Assembly (NCBI RefSeq): GCF_018977255.1
Contig: NW_024704742.1
Coordinates: 62,870,001-62,934,000, forward strand
Source of the DNA: Callorhinchus milii
Lineage: Eukaryota
Reading direction: 5' to 3'
Length of the DNA: 64,000 nt
The translations under genes and the position numbers were made by a program. Shown here in pieces: positions 4,523-53,740 of this stretch (position 1 is the first letter of the stretch; each line of letters begins with the position of its first letter). The notes below the pieces were generated by a model that was given only the letters and a program-made list of their open reading frames with translations, had not been told where the DNA came from and did not search any database.

Positions 4523-4758
4523 GAACATAAGAACATAAGAAATAGGAGCAGGAGTAGGCAATTCGGCCCCTCGAGCCTGCCCCACCATTTAATAAGATGA
4601 CGGCTGATCTTCTAACCTAATTCCATTTACCTGCCCTATCTCCATATAATAATAATAATCATAATCCTTGCATTTGATATAGCGCTTTTCACGTCTTCTC
4701 GATGTCTCAAAGTCATATCCCTTAATCTCATTAGTTTTTAAAAATCTATCAATCTCAG
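4523..4758 (-). mobile_element. CR1 3' end interrupted by a SINE tail (4648-4713)
   Basis: gaacataagaacataagaaataggagcaggagtaggc is the CR1 terminus. The TSD CATAT lies at 4643-4647 and 4714-4718. Confidence 0.85.
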
Positions 4759-9305: not shown

Positions 9306-9579
9306 TAAATGAACAGGGAAACTAGACACTTCAAATCCTTCAGTTAATTTAGTCCCTGTATATTTTGCTTATTGCATTCAATCAATGATTATTGATCGGG
9401 AGATGTTGAAATCACTCTTTTCTGTACTAAGGTGCTTTGCACTTATATCCAAGGTCATTTTCTTGCTCCATTTTGCTTGTGCATTTTGACCTGTTGGCAA
9501 GATCCTCTAGAATTACTGAATGAGCACCTTTGATTTCAGGAACTTGAGGCTGATAGGCAAAATTAAATTAATAGGGGTC

Positions 9580-10075
9580 GGCCTTGCCTCGCAAGAGGAC
9601 CTGGGTTCGATTCCTGAGCAGGGCGAACCTTAGGCAAGTTTCCTTACACCACACGCCTCTGTTTACCTGGCAATAAGTGGGAACCTGGTTGTTATTTGAC
9701 TGGCAGATCGCTTTTCTGGGGTTAATAATCCTTTTAAAAAAATAATAATTTGGTCACTCAATCCACGACTGTTTGTGGGACACTGCTGGGCCCAATTGGC
9801 TGCCGAGTTTTGCCCACAAAATAACCATAAAAATAATAATGATCTTTGCATTTGGTATAGTGCCTTATCACATTGTTGAGACGTCTCAAAGCGCTTCACA
9901 GGATATGCTGTAAATTGAATTAACTGTATATTTTCTGGATCAAATATGGCAGACAATTGCGCACAGCAGTGTCACAATATACAGTCAATTCACTTTACAG
10001 TATATTCTGTGAAGGGTTTTGAGACGTCTCGAAGATGTGAAGAAGCGCTATATCAAATGTAACGATTATTATTGT
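9580..10075 (+). mobile_element. tRNA-Ala SINE (long) with an antiparallel SINE 3' part nested at ~9826-9972
   Basis: The host sequence cccacaaaata|tacagtcaattc is split by a reverse-strand tail and body, with an acaa(a)ata duplication. Confidence 0.85.
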
Positions 10076-10459
10076 ATAAGTTTGCTTTCAACAAAAATTA
10101 TTCAAGAAAATGCCTTGTGGGAGATATTTGAAATTCAGGTTTATTTCCTGAGCAGTCCTCAGAACCAACTCTAGTGCTCAGCAGAGAGCTGCTCAAGCTG
10201 AACAATATCCTTTCCATTCCTGGCCTAGGAGCAGCTGAGGCAAGAAACTTCAATACTAGGTACTGTTGTGTACACTGTAATGCTCCCAGGCCTGGTTGCA
10301 TCCTGATCATCACACTGGCAAAAAAGGATGCTGATTTGCATTCCTGCATATGGATCTGCATGCTGATAGATCCCATATGTTTAACAGCTTCCTGCAACGA
10401 CTGAAGATGTGCAAGAACGGATCTCCTTGCAAGATGAGAAACCTGAAATGAGAAACCTA

Positions 10460-10745
10460 CTAAAACCTGCTCCACTTGCCCCACTTCATTTCCCAGAACT
10501 AAATCCAGCACTGCTTTCTTCCTCGTTGGGCTGGAAACATGCTGATCCAGAAGGTTCTCCTGCACACATTTCAGGAATTCCTCCCCTTCCTTGCCCTTTA
10601 CATTATGTGTTTCCCCGTCTATGTTAGGATAATTGAAATGCCCCATTATCACTACTCTATTGGTTTTGTATCTCCGAAATCTGCTTGCAGATTTGCTCAT
10701 CTATCTCCTTCTCACTATTTGGAGGTCTATAGTAAACACCTAAAA
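10460..10745 (-). mobile_element. CR1 LINE ORF2 endonuclease fragment
   Basis: VVIMGHFNYPNID...EEFLKCVQENLLDQHVSSPTRKKAVLDLVLGNE matches the CR1 APE motifs GDFNYP and PTR..A.LDLVL.NE. Confidence 0.9.
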
Positions 10746-11032
10746 GTTCTTCTGAGGATTTCTGTAACTGACTGAATATGTGTAGGTGAACATCACAACA
10801 TGGAATATTTTGTTCAAAAGGGGATAATATTTACAATATTTGCTAATGTGGTTGTTTGCCTATAAGTACATCATCACTACTGTAAAATGTAAATACATTG
10901 GAGCACTCTTAGACATTTTAAAGTGATGAAATGCTCTATCAAATGCAAGAAATATTATTATTACCATAATAATATTATTATTATCTCCCCTTCCCTCCCT
11001 CACTCCATCTCCTCTTCTCTCCCTCCATCTCC

Positions 11033-12050
11033 CGCTTCGGGTTCTCTACAGTGGTGCTGGGTCTCAGAGAGCAGAACACTGTGCCATTGGGAGTGATTAT
11101 CAGAGTTACAGTGGGAGCTGGGATCACAGGAATAATCGCTCTGATCACCCTCATCTCCATCTTCTGACACTCAGCCAAGAGAGAAAAGGCCGTTTGACAT
11201 TCGAAGAGTGATATCCGCATCCAAATTGTTCCCAATGCCCAAATGTCTCCAAATCACAGAGGAGAGGATACCATCAGTCAATGGCTGGGAAAAGCGGATG
11301 TCCCAGGATGTCACAGACAGAGAACCATGAGATGTTTGAGGAAGACTTACTACACGCGCCTCTGTTTACCTAGCAGTAAATAGAAACCTGATTGTTAGTC
11401 GATTCCCGGATTGCTTTCCCGGGGGTAATAATCCCTCCAAAAAAATAATAAAAATAAATATAATAATAATTTGGTCACTCAATCCACGACTGTTTATGGG
11501 ACACTCATGGGCGTAATTGTCTGCCGCGTTTCTCCCAAAAACAGTCAATTCACTTTACAGTATATTCTTTGAGACATTTAGAAGACGTGATAAGGCGCAA
11601 TATCAAATGCAGGAATTATTAAGACTATGATTGTCTGAAGATGAAGGACCCCACAAATGGATGCTACAATGTGCACTTGGGCAAGGAAAGTGGTAGGTCA
11701 ACGTGGAATGGGTTCCTGGAGTACATCCCTTCCCCTCGGGGGGTCTTCGAAGCACCCTCAGCTTGACATGAAGGGCGGATGTACATCTCTGAGACGCCAT
11801 CTGAACATCTCCAAGCCTCACTAAACTCAGGGACTCCTAGAGTGAGGCTATGCCATAGACCCTATCTACAGCCACACGGCCTTCGTTCCAGCCCAGTTCA
11901 GCTGTGAGTATGTCACTCTTTCTGCATATGAGAGTGCAGAGGGCTGGGAGGAACATTCAGTTAGGTCCTTGCAACTCTGCTATCCATCCTCAAAAGCACT
12001 TATTGTATTATTGTTGAGCAACTCAACAGGGAATGCAAACACATGTGTGA
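11033..12050 (+). pseudogene. KIRREL: Processed pseudogene fragment of a KIRREL/NEPH-family Ig-superfamily receptor (end of Ig5, TM and whole cytoplasmic tail)
   Basis: Manual translation from 11033 gives RFGFSTVVLGLREQNTVPLGVIIRVTVGAGITGIIALITLISIF*HSAKREKAV*HSKSDIRIQIV. A frameshift leads to SMAGKSGCPRMSQTENHEMFEED, then a SINE, then DYDCLKMKDPTNGCYNVH (KDPTNGCYNV at 11644-11673), then AIDPIYSHTAFVPAQF, ending QQGMQTHV* (stop 12048-12050). KDPTNGYYxV and terminal MQTHV are KIRREL hallmarks. There are no introns, several in-frame TGA and frameshifts. Confidence 0.9.
11349..11620 (+). mobile_element. tRNA-Ala SINE (long, 5'-truncated) inserted in the KIRREL pseudogene
   Basis: SINE body and tail are present. 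The TSD AAGACT lies at 11342-11347 and 11621-11626, and the KIRREL frame (EED-YD) rejoins when the SINE is removed. Confidence 0.9.
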
Positions 12051-12089
12051 GAGAGACACCGTATCTCTATCTTTCCCCTGCTCCCCCCA

Positions 12090-12140
12090 CTCAATGTTGT
12101 GATGAAGTGCTATATCAAATGCAAGGATTATTATTGTTAT
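12090..12140 (+). mobile_element. L2/SINE-type 3' terminal tail capping the KIRREL retrocopy
   Basis: ctcaatgttgtgatgaagtgctatatcaaatgcaaggattattattgttat matches the SINE tail consensus in this window. Confidence 0.8.
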
Positions 12141-12547
12141 AAGCGCTCATTTCCTTTTGTGTTTTGTTATGAAACTTGTTCTATTTGCAAAGTAGCACAT
12201 TTTTATTTTGAAATTCCCCTTAAAGTGCAAAAAATAGCAAACAACAAACCAAACTATTTCACTTTCAATATTTTTTCATATTTCCTTTTGTGAACCTCAA
12301 AGCAGTCTGCAAATATCACAAATTGGCTCCCAAAGGATACTGAAACATTGGAGAGCTTTAGAGAAGAGTAACAAGGATGCATCTCTTATTTAGGGCTTTA
12401 AGCTTTTAGAATATTCTGTACTTGTTCTCACATAAAAAGACTGGAAGCAAAAATATTTCATGTGTTTAAAATGATGGGAAGTATAGTTAAATGTAGATAT
12501 AAACAGGCTTTTGGAATGACACTGTGAGAGCAGAACCAGTACAGATT

Positions 12548-12850
12548 TTAGCTTGGCTTAGTTAATACTCTTGCTCGTGGTCCAGAATGTTATGAGTTCA
12601 ACTTTACATTCAAATCTGAGCTCACTGTCTAGACTGATGCTCTGGGGAGTGTTGCCTTGTCAGAGATGCTGTCTTTTTGAAGAAACATTAAACTAAGGTA
12701 CCATCTTAAGGTACCATCTAAGGTACCGTCTGTTCTTCAGGTGGATGTTAATGATCCCATTCTACTATTTGAAAAAAGAGAAGAGAGCTTCTCCTGAGTG
12801 TCCAGGCAAACAATCCTAAATATTAATCAACTTGTTGCTTTTGGTGGGAC
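12548..12850 (+). mobile_element. Deu-domain SINE with an internal (taaggtaccatc)x3 tandem duplication
   Basis: Deu motifs are present; the 12-13 bp unit is repeated at ~12695-12731. Confidence 0.75.
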
Positions 12851-16654: not shown

Positions 16655-16766
16655 TAATAATAATAATTCTTGCATTTGATATAGCACTGTATCATACCAT
16701 TGAGATGTCTCAAAGTGCTTCACAGAATATACTGTAAAGTGAATTGACTGTATATTTTGTGGGCGA
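16655..16766 (-). mobile_element. tRNA-Ala SINE 3' fragment
   Basis: Matches the tail consensus. Confidence 0.8.
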
Positions 16767-18014: not shown

Positions 18015-18945
18015 CAAAATGTAAAATACTGCAGATGCTGGAAATCTGAAACAAAAACACAAGTCGTTGTCAACACTCAGCAGGTCAGGCAGCATCTATG
18101 GAGAAAGGAAAGTGAGTCAACCTTTCAGGTCAATGACCTTTCGTCAGAACTGGGGCATGTTGAGAGGGAGAGGTTTTTAAGGGCTAACAGAGAGAGGGGA
18201 AGCAGGACAAGGAAGATGAAAGCAAAAATGGGGTAGAGGACAGGGGATGATGGATTAACAAAGTGTTAGTGATGCAAAAAAGGGGGGATTGCAACAAAAC
18301 AGGGGAATAGAGGTATTAATAATGCAAAAAAGTGGGGGGAAACATTGCTACAAAATAGGCAGACCAGAGAGAGAAAAGGTGTGTCTGGGACCCAGATGAT
18401 GTGGCAATGGTCACAGAAGAGGGTGAGGGGGAAGGTGAGGCCAGAGGGTTGTAAGGTCCCTAGCAGATAGATGAGGTGCTGTTCCTTGAGCTCATTGCAA
18501 CAGTGTAGGAGACCATGGCTGGCGAGGTTAGAGTGTGAGTGAGAGGGAGAGTTGAAGTGCCAAGAAACCAGAAGCTCAGGGTTGTGCTTGCAACCAGAAT
18601 GGAGGTGTTCAGCAAATTGCTTACCAATCTGCTTTTCGTCTTCCCAATGTGGAAGAGACCACATCGTGAGCAGCAAATGCAGTAAACTACATTGGTGGTA
18701 GCACACGTAAATCACTGTCTCACTTGAAAACTGAATTTGGGACTCTGGACAGTGGTATGGGAGGAGATGAAAGGGCAGGTATTGCATCTCCTGCGCTGGC
18801 ATGGAAAGGTGCCGGGGAAGGAAAGCAACTGTTGGTGGCGATGGAGGAATGAACCAGGGAGACACGGAGGGAACGGTCCCTTTGGAATGCTGAGAGGGGA
18901 GGGGAGGGAAAGATATGTTTAGTGGTTGGATCACGCTGGAGTTTC
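18015..18945 (-). mobile_element. Penelope-like retroelement 3' part (GIY-YIG region plus 3' terminal repeat)
   Basis: LQRDPTTKHIFPSPPLSAFQRDRSLRVSLVHS and IGKQFAEHLHS...VSWHFNSPSHSHS...KEQHLIYLLGTLQPSGL. The terminus is gatgctgcctgacctgctgagt...atttccagcatctgcagt. Confidence 0.9.
18114..18152 (-). ncRNA. Minimal hammerhead ribozyme-like motif in the Penelope terminal repeat (probably mutated)
   Basis: The minus strand reads CAGTT CTGACGA A AGGTC ATT GACCT GAAA GGTT GACTC: CUGAnGA core, 5-bp stem II, GAAA, and a short GUU/GAC stem I. Confidence 0.65.
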
Positions 18946-26309: not shown

Positions 26310-26820
26310 GCATTTTTAATACAGTACCATTCATGTTTAGTAGATGTCTTAAAGTGCTTCACATGATTCATTATACAGTATGGTGACTATGCAATTTGTA
26401 CATAAATGTAGTTTAGGAGTCAATTTCCAAAGAATGGTGTCATTATCACATCCCCAAAAATTGCAATCCAAACAGGCTTCGATTAGTACCTTAAGATATC
26501 TTGAAAGTCTTAACAGTAAACTCCCTTCTCTTTTCAAATAGTGCCATGGTATCTTTAATATCCACCTGAACAGGCCGCAGTTTAATGTCTCAACCGAAGC
26601 ATGGTGCCTCTGACAATGAAACACACTCCCAGCATTTCATTAGAGTATCAGCTTAGACATTATAATAATAATAATAATCCTTACATTTGATATAGCAGTT
26701 TTTCACGTCTTTTAGGCATCTCAAAGCGCTTATTATAAGTTGAAGTCCCGATGTGGGGCGTGAATCCACAATCTCTGGCTCAGAGGCAAGAGTGCTACCA
26801 CTGAGCCAACTGACACACAG
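26310..26820 (-). mobile_element. Deu-domain SINE with a SINE tail inserted at ~26665-26730
   Basis: Deu motifs are present; attataa flanks the inserted tail on both sides. Confidence 0.7.
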
Positions 26821-50165: not shown

Positions 50166-50619
50166 GGCTGGCTGCGCTGTCTTTAGCTGTGCCCTGGAGG
50201 TTATTGTTTATAGCACAATTAAATAGATTGAAATTGTACACATACAAATTTATAAAACAATTATGCCACAGACATTTTTTTTTAATATCTTACTGATCTA
50301 CTGGTAAGTGCATTCCTAGAAATATGTGGGCCAGCTATGGTTGAATTCTTTACATGTGCTATTTCTACATTTAGTCAAAGAACTGATAGAAATACGAGAC
50401 CTGATAGAAATATGAGCTCTCATCTCATTCAGCTCATATAAATGTTTTATTAGTTCCTGGTACAAGCTGGCGTAGAAATTCAACATGGTTCTGGATTTAC
50501 TCTATTTTCTTACCATTTCATTGTCAGAATTTGGCAAATTCCCAAATGCAGCCTTTTAAGAACTGTAAAGGAACAGTATAAAAATAAGACTGAAAACAAT
50601 TAAATTTAGTATTGTTAGA

Positions 50620-53412
50620 ATTGGCAGCGATGCCTCCAGGAGTGAGGTCGGCAGGAGCTGGCAGGTAACAGCAAGGCCAAGGTCCTGGGGCTGAGGACCA
50701 ACAGGTAGTGATAGGCAGGGCCAAGGTCTCACTGATTGAGTGGTGAGCGCCGGCCATTACTGGGTTCAGGTGGAGCCGCCATTTCACAATTTCCTGCCTA
50801 AACCCCCGCGTGACGTCACTTCTGCCCACCAGGTTTGAATCCCAGGAACCAGGTCCATTGCTATCTCCTTCGCCTTCTCTGTCTTTTCCCTGCAGGCTGC
50901 TCAGCGTTATCTTCCAGGTTGGGCAACCTGGTCGATAACACAATGAGCGTCTTACCTCTTCTCCTCCCTCTTTGCCACCTCTACCCCTACAGTCTCCATG
51001 CCTGTGGGCTGACCATACCCCACTAACCGCCTGCCTTAATTCTTGGTGTCCACATCTTGGCTGCCGCTGCTGACCCAAGCTGCTTTTCTCCCAAAATACT
51101 CCCTGTAACTCTCCCACTCCATCCTCCTCTCTCTTCATCTGCTTTGAGCCTGGGAATCCTCCATCGGGCTCACTGTGGCACTTTCCGTTGGCTGTCCAGC
51201 AGCAGCCACACTGACTGCCCCATTCCCCACTATCACCGCAAGCTCCACCAACCCAAACCCCAGAGGACAATCTCTCCTCCCTCATCCACATTTCCACCCT
51301 CCCTGCCAATCCTCCCACTACACTCTCCTGTCTCACACATTCCTCAGCCAACTGTCCCCTCTGCATCAGCCTACAAAATGTCCACTCCCTTTCAAACTCG
51401 GCTCTCACCATCAACGATATCATCATTGATGAAAATGTTGATATCCTGGCACGCAATAAAACCTGGATCAGCCCAGGCAACACCTTCCCTCTGACTGAGG
51501 CCACACCACCTGGCAATACCTTCCACCATACCTCACGTCCTAACCCCACTTGCTCTATCCCCCTTCTCCACCGGCTCATTCCCCTCATCTGAGCATCTTA
51601 CTCCCTACCATCCCTTCAATCTTTCCCTCAAAATTCTCCTGATTTATAATCCCTCACTTTCATCTTTGACATGTCTTCCCTTCTAGCTTCCCTCTGCCTC
51701 TGTTCTGAATGCCTCCTCATCCTAGGTATCTTCAACTTACACTTCACCACCTCTTGCTCTATCTCTACCAACTTCTCCTCTCTCCTTTCCTCTCACAACC
51801 ACTCTCCACATTTACTTTGCCACCCAAGTTCATGGCCACCCACTCGACCTGGTGATTACCCGGGGCCTCGGTGTCTCATACCTCACAATTACCGATAAAG
51901 CCATCTCAGAACACCATTTAATCTCCCTTGACACCTCAATCCCTCTCAACACTACTATCCAATCCACCTCCATCTCCAACCACCCCTGGAAAAGAATCTC
52001 TCTGCATCCCTCTTTGCTACCCTGAAGTCATCTGAACTCCTCTCCTTCTGGCCTACCTTCCGCACTGACTTATTCTCCTCGGTAACTCTCCTCCACAATT
52101 CCCTCTCCACCATTCTCGATGCCCTTGCCCCCCCCCAACATCTCCCAAACCACTTCTACTCATATAACTCACCCTGGTACACAAGCCACCTTCAATCACT
52201 CAAGGGTCAGGTGTGTGCCGTTGAATGCACGTGGCTCAAATCAGCAAATCTAGCTGGACCACATAAAAACTTACTACTCTGCCCTCACCTCTGCTAAATC
52301 GTCCTTCTATTCCAAGATAATCTTGGAGGTCAAGGACAATGCCAGGCTCCTCTTCTCTACTACCAAACGGCTCCTCAGTCCACCCTCTCATACCTTGCCC
52401 ATCCTCTCCTCCAACTGCGATGAGATGCTGCATTTCCTCAAGACCAAAATTGAGGGAATCAGTTCAGCTGCATTCACCCTCCCAACCATCAGCCCCTCCC
52501 CGTCTCTCCCTCACACTACCGCCCCTACCCATCCTTCCCACCTTCGAACCTGTCTCTCCCTCCTCTCTCACCACCACTATACCCTACGTAAAGGCCACCA
52601 CCTGTTCCCTTGATCCCATCCCTACCCATCTCCTTACCTTTCAGCTCCACCTTCACTCCCCTTCACTCTCAGACCTCATCAACCTCTCCCTATTAACTGG
52701 CACTATTCTCACACCCCTAAAACAGCTGTCATCATCCTTATCCTAAAAAACAATCTCTGGACCTTTCTCCCCCATATCTGTGCCATGATCTGCTCTGCCT
52801 TCCCCAACCTCCACAACTTTGCCTGACTTCGCCAAAACCCTCATACACGCTTTCATTACATCCAGGCTGACTGTGTCAAAGCCTTACTTTTTGGTCTTCC
52901 CAACTCTTCCCTCCACAAGCTACAGGTCATCCAGAACTCTGCAGCTCGTGTCCTCTCCTGCACCAGACTCTGTGACCCCCATCACACCACCCACTCCCGG
53001 CTCCACTCCACCCCATCCCTCAGAGGATCAAGTTCAAAACCCTCGTCCTTACCTTCAAGGCCCTCCATGGCCTTGCCCTCTCCTATCTCTCTGACCTGCT
53101 AACCCCTTAACAACCTGTCCACTCCCTCCAATTAGCAGGCTCCAGCGGTCGGACCTTCAGCCTCTCTGCTCCCATCTTCTGGAACTCCATCTCACATTTT
53201 CTTTGCCTTGCTCCCTCCCTTGCCTCCTTCAAGGCACAATTCAAGACCCTCCTCTTCGACTGTGCCTTCGGCCACCCTTCTACACTTTTAGACCAGCACC
53301 CTTCTTGATCCCAAGCCCCAGCAACCTCAGGTCCTAATCCCTGACTGTTCAGTGCCTTGGGACATCCTCTTAACGTGAAAGGCATTTTACAAATCTAATT
53401 TTGTATTGTATA
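50620..53412 (+). mobile_element. Long L2 element with putative 5' region, decayed endonuclease, RT core deleted, and 3' tail
   Basis: APE-like INDIIIDENVDIL...TWISP...LTEATPPGNTFHH, LILGIFNLH and HGHPLDLV, then CSLDPIPT and KTAVI. At ~52760 it jumps to FLPHI..., LIHAFITSRL. The tail is gtgaaaggcattttacaaatctaattttgtattgta. Confidence 0.85.
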
Positions 53413-53414
53413 TT

Positions 53415-53740
53415 AATAATCCTTACATTCGATATACTGCCTCAGCATGTTATCCAGATGTCTTTAGGCACCTAACACAGGATCTATTGTAAAGTGCAGT
53501 AACTGCATATTTGTAGGCGAATGCCACAACCAATTCGCTCACAAACAACCATGAAGGGAATGATCAATCTTGCATGGTGGACTCTTGGCCAGAATATTAG
53601 GAGAAACTCACTTCTTTTTCCAAATAGTGCCATAGGATTTTAAAGTTTCACCTGAACAGACAGATAGAACCTCAGTTTCACATCAACGCAGCACTCCCTC
53701 AGTTCGGCATTGGATTGTCAGCTGAGATTATGAGCTGTAG
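53415..53740 (-). mobile_element. Deu-domain SINE
   Basis: aatagtgccataggatttt...cacctgaacagacagat...gcagcactccctcag. Confidence 0.75.

Follow-up and report, generated by a model that had tools for sequence, protein, structure and literature searches.

A decayed, 5'-truncated and intronless retrocopy of the KIRREL2/kirrel3l gene occupies positions 11030-12050 of a 64,000-nt stretch of Callorhinchus milii DNA, hereafter the window, as delimited by tblastn with protein P0001 and by frame-aware alignment. The retrocopy and the features that surround it are described here on the plus strand, in a window that is rich in LINE fragments and SINEs with a tRNA-Ala head. Upstream lies the 3' end of an older, 5'-truncated SINE (tail A; 10860-10963, with an approximate 5' limit), which is ~25% diverged from the window consensus and closes in an (ATT)n/(AAT)n tract at 10954-10984 whose sequence contains a short internal inverted repeat that folds into a hairpin. 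This tract is followed by a C/T-rich stretch (10985-11029; 94% pyrimidine), which may be host flank or 5' extra nucleotides, and the KIRREL alignment begins at 11030. A SINE that was inserted later within the retrocopy spans 11347-11620, between the two copies of a target duplication of 5-6 nt (AAGAC at 11342-11346 and 11621-11625). Past the stop codon, 39 nt without a repeat match in the window (12051-12089), presumably the start of the 3'UTR, lead to a SINE tail stub (tail B; 12090-12140), in which the L2/SINE stem-loop is represented by its loop and 3' arm, together with the conserved core and (ATT)3. Farther downstream, a non-repeat, U-rich stretch that has no self-match in the window (12141-12228) may represent further 3'UTR, and the A-rich tract behind it (12229-12254; 18 A, 6 C, 1 G and 1 T) is a candidate for a decayed poly(A) or an internal A-rich priming site.

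The KIRREL2 copy is a processed pseudogene

A protein search with 11039-11344 as the query identified P0001 (495 aa, E 3e-23), the relatives of which carry the names KIRREL2 or kirrel3-like (kirrel3l); a 60-residue query taken from the pseudogene gave no match. Among 123 proteins, P0001 is the closest to the copy, with 271 summed bits versus 103 for the runner-up. By tblastn, residues 244-495 of P0001 match 11030-12047, and the copy therefore begins at residue 244 and contains the end of the last Ig domain, the transmembrane helix and the cytoplasmic tail, which ends in ...QGMQTHV before the TGA stop codon at 12048-12050. The frame-aware alignment showed identity to P0001 at 149 of 243 residues and revealed six in-frame stops and at least three frameshifts in the reading frame, with a fourth flagged frameshift being an artefact of excising the internal SINE.

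We used isoforms of KIRREL2 orthologues to mark splice sites across the copied region. Indels in 7 of 14 isoform pairs mark three junctions, located before the transmembrane helix, after the transmembrane helix and before DPTNG, and the retrocopy spans all three of these splice sites without a gap. In human KIRREL3, the corresponding region is described as split over exons 12-17 (PMC4269076). Searches with the 123 proteins found no match to further Ig-domain or KIRREL exons in the window outside of 10900-12200. Because splice sites are crossed, other KIRREL exons are absent from the window and the frame is broken by stops and frameshifts, we conclude that the copy is processed, 5'-truncated and dead, which confirms the original prediction that it is a retrocopy. 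By the sequence features testable here, the KIRREL copy at 11030-12050 is thus a processed pseudogene, and an unprocessed duplicate gene was ruled out on the basis of the crossed splice sites and the lack of other exons in the window.

At sites that are conserved between P0001 and outgroups, the pseudogene has accumulated 29 changes among 214 non-degenerate positions (13.6%; 95% interval, 9.3-18.9%). The internal SINE at 11347-11620 interrupts EED|YDCLK and is off its consensus at 16 of 142 positions, in keeping with insertion later than the retrocopy. Within 11285-11346, the pseudogene residues MAGKS...SQTEN are nearer to P0005, a protein of the shark Heptranchias, than to P0001, and nine pseudogene sites agree with the outgroups against P0001; the P0001 lineage may have changed after the copy arose, or P0001 may be mis-modelled at 11285-11346. 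In four whole-genome runs matched to 11623-12500, no contig of the parent was recognisable at 80% likeness. No RNA run was among the listed runs that match the locus, which has no bearing on expression.

A half-hairpin SINE tail lies 39 nt past the stop codon

SINE homology begins at 12090 (CTCAATG...), 39 nt past the stop codon, and ends at ~12140 on the same strand as the retrocopy, which bears out the earlier placement of a same-strand tail about 40 nt past the KIRREL stop. That tail had been called SINE/L2-type, and its SINE half holds: tail B ends in the SINE form ATCAAATGCAAGG-ATT, whereas the L2 ends of the window have the form ATAAATGCAAG-TTG. Tail B also shares its conserved core and (ATT)n end with the tRNA-headed SINEs of the window. 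We ruled out that the C/T tract and the tail together constitute an L2 3' end, because the tail is of SINE form and 12045-12100 is unmatched among window L2 ends. Relative to the window consensus, tail B has 4 mismatches in 44 positions (95% interval, 2.5-21.7%), or 6 in 50 by an alternative hand count. The decay of tail B does not differ from that of the pseudogene (4/44 versus 29/214, p 0.62; p 1.0 with the count of 6/50), which indicates that their ages are compatible and that dating cannot separate one event from two.

The L2 and SINE ends of the window have in common a lower stem, an internal loop, an upper stem and a 5-nt loop. A hairpin at this place is the centroid structure for four of six folded ends, three of which adopt exactly this register. 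In an alignment of 17 rows, 87.7% of cells are paired, compared to 30-58% in slid controls, and 7 of the 13 pairs have changed on both sides, although the pairing score is favoured by deriving the structure from the same aligned sequences. The first base of tail B is the one just before the loop, so that of the hairpin it holds the loop and the 3' arm, with the whole 5' arm absent. No compensating fold with the upstream 39 nt was found, and the 90 nt past the stop codon fold no better than shuffles (z +1.09).

Retrotransposition by L2 elements is reported to depend on the stem-loop. For zebrafish L2s, deleting, swapping or disrupting the stem-loop is reported to abolish retrotransposition (PMC4176376), and for eel UnaL2 both the stem-loop and the terminal repeat are described as necessary (PMC1636434). 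Cell assays also indicate that an intact L2 3' tail suffices to mobilise foreign RNA in trans (PMC1636434). The substrate of a stringent L2 is a complete 3' stem-loop plus the terminal repeat, and tail B does not provide this combination; a UTR with just this half of the hairpin could not have supplied the proposed licence. Instead, the half hairpin is the appearance of a truncated cDNA, whether one that integrated alone or one that was template-switched.

We also compared the locus to contigs assembled from sequencing runs. About 26,000 contigs per whole-genome run match tail B, and many of the tail-bearing contigs likewise lose their match at 12090. The comparison covered 4 of the 24 listed runs (4 of the 7 that match) over 11623-12500 at 80% likeness, and in all four the first 38 nt of tail B were joined to the retrocopy. 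No joint that skips tail B occurred in these four runs; the contigs break within the tail, and none bridges it. Among the matches listed, small bumps in depth were apparent at 11773-11802, 11983-12042, 12193-12222, 12283-12342 and 12433-12492, and a 22-nt joint connected 12139 to 12309 in three of the four runs; both are uninterpretable, because chance matches are expected with ~26,000 tail-bearing contigs. For runs X2-X5, many contigs at 12090-12143 contain tail-behind-tail joints (back 35-53 nt), and tandem SINE tails thus exist elsewhere in the genome.

The 5' flank and the likeness of the two tails

ATT repeats had been proposed to bound both ends of the unit. The (ATT)n of the older SINE does extend to 10984, but the C/T tract of 45-47 nt (10985-11031) parts it from the first KIRREL codon. 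None of the preceding KIRREL2 residues is encoded within the C/T tract, and the possibility that this tract and a second one at 12062-12089 are a target duplication was ruled out by comparison to shuffles (p 0.34 and 0.85). Both ends of the unit finish in TATTATT[A/G]TTAT. The original prediction interpreted such flanking repeats as the result of microhomology-primed insertion, an interpretation that is weakened by the ATT repeat being the only shared flank and by the target preference of SINEs in the window. Using 36 of the 37 tails as anchors, we found that no SINE (0/36) had landed within 100 nt behind an earlier tail and that three (3/36) had landed after an ATT tract, versus a background of 3%. 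The SINEs of the window thus show no preference for landing behind older tails, and the ATT tract at the 5' end cannot be read as a mark of tail priming. A comparison of flanks found no target duplication around the stub or the whole unit beyond the ATT repeats, in a weak test that scored 3 of 18 truncated copies at 6 or more versus 20 of 400 random pairs. A short target duplication would often have been lost, given ~14% decay in each of its copies.

Tail A is more decayed than tail B, with 17 mismatches to the window consensus in 69 aligned nt versus 4 in 44 (p 0.048). Nevertheless, the two tails are 88% identical over 41 nt (10923-10963 and 12099-12139), and they are the only 2 of the 37 tails that contain TGATGAA. 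Tail B is the nearest to tail A of 36 tails, but several other tails are as close or closer to tail B. The two have three non-consensus bases in common, as do 4 of 231 pairs drawn from the 22 of 37 tails in the longer register; one of these bases is attributable to CpG decay, and tail A also shares three with an unrelated copy at 16685. The likeness of tails A and B may be due to chance, subfamily, gene conversion or long duplication, and TGATGAAG may be the mark of a SINE tail subfamily.

An A-rich tract downstream is a candidate poly(A) remnant

The absence of a poly(A), which was central to the original prediction, is doubtful in light of the A-rich tract on the sense strand at 12229-12254, where 18 A occur in 26 nt. 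The tract follows the stop codon after 179 nt, the last 89 nt of which separate it from the tail. Nine such tracts occur within 128 kb (both strands of the window). The rarity of the tract hinges on the tract length chosen: a match to it was found in 2-9% of 400-nt segments at lengths of 20-40 and in 14% by segment score, compared to 22-33% at short lengths of 12-15 (33% at 12 nt). We found no target duplication after the tract, and neither AATAAA nor ATTAAA is well spaced before it. An A tract that is broken mainly by C resembles a decayed poly(A). These sequence features provide modest evidence that 12229-12254 is a candidate decayed poly(A), or an internal A-rich priming site. Among the signs that the original prediction named as counting against it, a downstream poly(A) has its candidate in this tract, and a target duplication around the tail alone was not recognisable.

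Tail stubs insert alone elsewhere in the window

Among the 37 SINE tails of the window, 9 are stubs of 60 nt or less, and stand-alone stubs break 27-60 nt from the end. Two of the other stubs, at 4648-4713 and 26665-26730, carry their own target duplications (5 nt at 4683 and 7 nt at 26696), which shows that stubs insert alone and upholds the earlier caveat that tail-only insertions are common here. The target duplications of SINEs in the window measure 5-9 nt. The tail-only stub at 4648-4713, with its 5-nt target duplication, resides in an element that we take to be a CR1-type 3' fragment.

At the density of the window, the probability that a same-strand, tail-only stub falls within 50, 100 or 500 nt of a given point is 0.3%, 0.6% or 3%, respectively, and the corresponding values for any tail copy are 1.4%, 2.8% and 13%. 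By our own estimate, the adjacency of retrocopy and stub would favour a single event only about twofold. A switch of template would not be expected to fall right behind the stop codon, whereas a poly(A)-primed copy that is tracked by its protein always seems to end there. Similarly, the homology seems to end near the tail because protein homology must stop at the stop codon.

A reverse transcriptase can act in trans. The earlier observation that no L1 is evident in the window consequently carries little weight, all the more so given the many retrocopies of cartilaginous fishes. Of 14 window ORFs searched against Pfam, one gave a match, to a LINE endonuclease. This match, to the endonuclease-RT domain PF14529 (E 3e-4), lies in 10098-10700, a stop-free LINE fragment of 200 codons just upstream of the retrocopy and on the opposite strand.

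Origin of the retrocopy-stub unit

We consider it probable that the locus results from two ordinary events, the formation of a processed pseudogene and the separate arrival of a stub, which lies in its UTR or was carried along with it. Here and below, the ranking of explanations reflects our own weighing rather than a computation. By this account, a spliced KIRREL2 mRNA would have been reverse-transcribed in trans by an enzyme that may have been an L1/Tx1-type or other relaxed reverse transcriptase, with priming probably at a poly(A) or an A-rich site around 12229-12254. The cDNA would then have inserted with a 5' truncation within the last Ig exon and decayed by ~14% on its own branch. For the stub, an L2 partner would have copied SINE RNA until reverse transcription halted at the hairpin loop, and the resulting 50-nt stub would have integrated 39 nt past the stop codon, either here after retroposition or earlier in the parent UTR, from which it would have been passively carried. 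In this scheme, 12141-12228 would be UTR and the A tract a poly(A) remnant.

Several lines of evidence favour a separate insertion: stubs are frequent (9/37), two of them have target duplications of their own, and the retrocopy had already received one later SINE with a target duplication. An ordinary retrocopy is further favoured by the uncommon A-rich tract that follows the tail on the sense strand after 89 nt, and by the lack of a whole-unit target duplication beyond the ATT repeats. Elephant shark has ~520,000 copies of these SINE families according to their published description (PMC5499810), and a survey of cartilaginous fishes in a 2026 preprint gives a total of 14,081 retrocopies (10.64898/2026.06.26.734816), which also speaks for the ordinary reading. 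Against a separate stub, one located so near the stop codon on the same strand is rare by chance (0.3-1.4% within 50 nt), a second same-strand tail lies near the 5' end, the weak test detected no target duplication framing the stub, and the decay of the stub gives no sign that it is younger than the pseudogene. The A tract, in turn, has neither a target duplication nor a well-spaced AATAAA, and its rarity depends on length. A further argument against the ordinary reading is that chondrichthyan L1s are reported only as fragments (PMC5203782); the accessible part of PMC9004415 gives nothing on chimaera L1. The stringency of CR1-type elements is thought to limit the retrocopies of birds (PMC5470649; PMC3747384), and the preprint links non-mammalian retrocopies to CR1 or Tx1 content (10.64898/2026.06.26.734816).

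Alternatively, the unit could be one insertion by a stringent L2, either through a switch from SINE RNA to mRNA at the loop or through RNA annealed to a genomic SINE tail, which on the whole we regard as unlikely. In the former route, L2 ORF2p would have started on a SINE RNA at a target rich in AT and read through the 3' repeats and the 3' arm of the hairpin; at the loop it would have jumped to KIRREL2 mRNA, ~39 nt past its stop codon, and then copied ~750 nt, with the C/T tract representing 5' extra nucleotides added during joining. The shared strand and close spacing (chance of 0.3-1.4%), the compatible ages of tail and pseudogene, the TATTATT[A/G]TTAT finish at both ends and a junction at the hairpin loop, a plausible pause site, are all consistent with such a switch. 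Precedents are described in U6-L2 and U6-Mon-1 chimeras of platypus and lizard (PMC4476161), and 5' extra nucleotides are reported for about half of zebrafish ZfL2-2 inserts (PMC4245944). However, a switch could fall anywhere along the mRNA, and a position just past the stop codon is predicted anyway by a hidden UTR. Stand-alone stubs also have comparable break points, at 27-60 nt from the end, the downstream sequence contains an A-rich tract, and the shared flank consists of ATT repeat only, in a window where SINE targeting of ATT tracts is weak. Thus, the template switch that was included in the original prediction retains the U6 precedent and compatible ages on its side but is opposed by the candidate poly(A) downstream and the lack of a whole-unit target duplication, and we view it as possible, a live minority reading that is rather unlikely.

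The likeness of the tails raises the idea that most of tail B arose from tail A by a long duplication. This would have been a homology-primed or tailless insertion, in which a broken genomic SINE tail served as the annealing site for mRNA or cDNA and ~41 nt of target were left on each side; later gene conversion between the neighbours would have a similar outcome. The 88% identity over 41 nt, the position of tail B as nearest to tail A among 36, the TGATGAA limited to these 2 of 37 tails and the three shared non-consensus bases (seen in 4/231 pairs) fit this idea, and internal priming based on complementarity is documented for tailless retropseudogenes (PMC5322556). We nonetheless judge it improbable: one of the shared bases is CpG decay, tail A shares three with the copy at 16685 too, several other tails resemble tail B as much as tail A does or more, tail A is more decayed than tail B (p 0.048), and target duplications of SINEs in the window are only 5-9 nt. 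Least probable, and in our view very improbable, is the licence suggested in the original prediction, by which L2 ORF2p would have recognised a SINE tail in the parent 3'UTR and, through it, accepted the entire mRNA for retroposition. The orientation of the tail fits, and mobilisation of foreign RNA in trans by an intact L2 3' tail (PMC1636434) lends the licence some support, but the stub consists of loop and 3' arm and is without the 5' arm of both stems, the 90 nt past the stop codon fold like shuffles (z +1.09), and deletion of the stem-loop or disruption of the stem is reported to abolish L2 retrotransposition (PMC4176376). The licence would also need the 5' arm to have been lost cleanly at a later time. 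Taken together, these results partly support the interpretation of tail-licensed retroposition: the retrocopy with its adjacent tail is real, the licence model fails the structural test, and the ordinary explanation is more likely.

Relation to known systems

Like the processed pseudogenes of vertebrates, the KIRREL2 copy is intronless and 5'-truncated, ends at the C-terminus, contains stops and frameshifts and was later invaded by a SINE. It differs from them in the lack of a clear poly(A) or target duplication, in the SINE stub 39 nt past the stop codon and in a host lineage in which only fragmentary L1 is reported. The SINEs of the window appear to be of the CmiSINE/SacSINE1-CM type, judging from the published description of CmiSINEs (SINE2-1_CM and SINE2B-1_CM) and SacSINE1-CM as families with a tRNA-Ala head and a 3' tail shared with L2-2_CM, copy numbers of ~303,000 and 218,000 and mean divergences of 12.6%, 17.2% and 22.4% (PMC5499810). 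The main SINE and LINE of elephant shark are also reported to have their 3' end in common (PMC1845163). Similarly, the stub matches the 3' end of the tRNA-Ala-headed SINEs of the window, its tail is common to the window L2 ends, and its divergence of ~9-12% fits the mean of 12.6% given for SINE2-1_CM (PMC5499810); unlike the full elements, only the last 50 nt are present here.

As in U6-L2 chimeras, a short L2-type 3' end is immediately preceded by a 5'-truncated, same-strand copy of a cellular RNA. The template-switch chimeras U6-L2 and U6-Mon-1/AnolisSINE2 are described from platypus and lizard (Doucet et al., 2015; PMC4476161), with target duplications of 1-9 bp in 72.5% of 40 platypus cases. 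In contrast, the cellular RNA here is a spliced mRNA rather than an snRNA, and no target duplication is recognisable; the mechanism of U6-L2 or U6-Mon-1 chimeras would apply to the locus only under the single-event reading, which is unproven. The locus may also resemble tailless retropseudogenes (Noll et al., 2015; PMC5322556) in a retroposition without terminal poly(A) and in the potential for priming by complementarity between RNA and target, but tailless retropseudogenes are described for therian L1, where target duplications are clear and priming is A-rich; these features are not demonstrated here. Our search, which was thin on subscription literature, listed no paper that describes an mRNA retrocopy joined to an L2-SINE tail.

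Under the ordinary explanation that we favour, the locus is one more dead retrocopy in a SINE-dense genome and matters little, apart from the caution that a retrocopy appears to end at any repeat just past its stop codon. If the single event were true, template switching by L2/SINE elements would extend from U6 snRNA to spliced mRNAs and would provide a tail-dependent, poly(A)-independent route to retrocopies of protein genes in a genome with about half a million SINEs and little L1. It would also predict a genome-wide excess of retrocopies that end in half-hairpin SINE stubs. Because L2 and CR1 are stringent, it would bear on the question of which enzymes make retrocopies in cartilaginous fishes and other L1-poor vertebrates. 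A single locus is insufficient to establish such a route.

Other features of the window

At 18050-18160 on the minus strand, a CTGACGA...GAAAG motif with a short hairpin between its parts resembles what we take to be the minimal hammerhead of Penelope-type repeats. A hammerhead pattern that requires GAAAC had one match in the window, which is at chance level, and 18050-18160 falls outside of that pattern; an Rfam search of the window at gathering thresholds returned no ribozymes. Upstream of the retrocopy, 9576-10075 contains three SINE pieces that are nested in alternating orientation and form a 98-nt inverted repeat (9835-9932 with 9976-10073, 83%). Downstream, a unit of 12-13 nt is repeated three times in tandem at 12693-12731 inside an old repeat. 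Finally, a long, decayed L2 extends over 50500-53420 on the plus strand, with several open stretches of 120-155 codons and a 3' tail near 53390.
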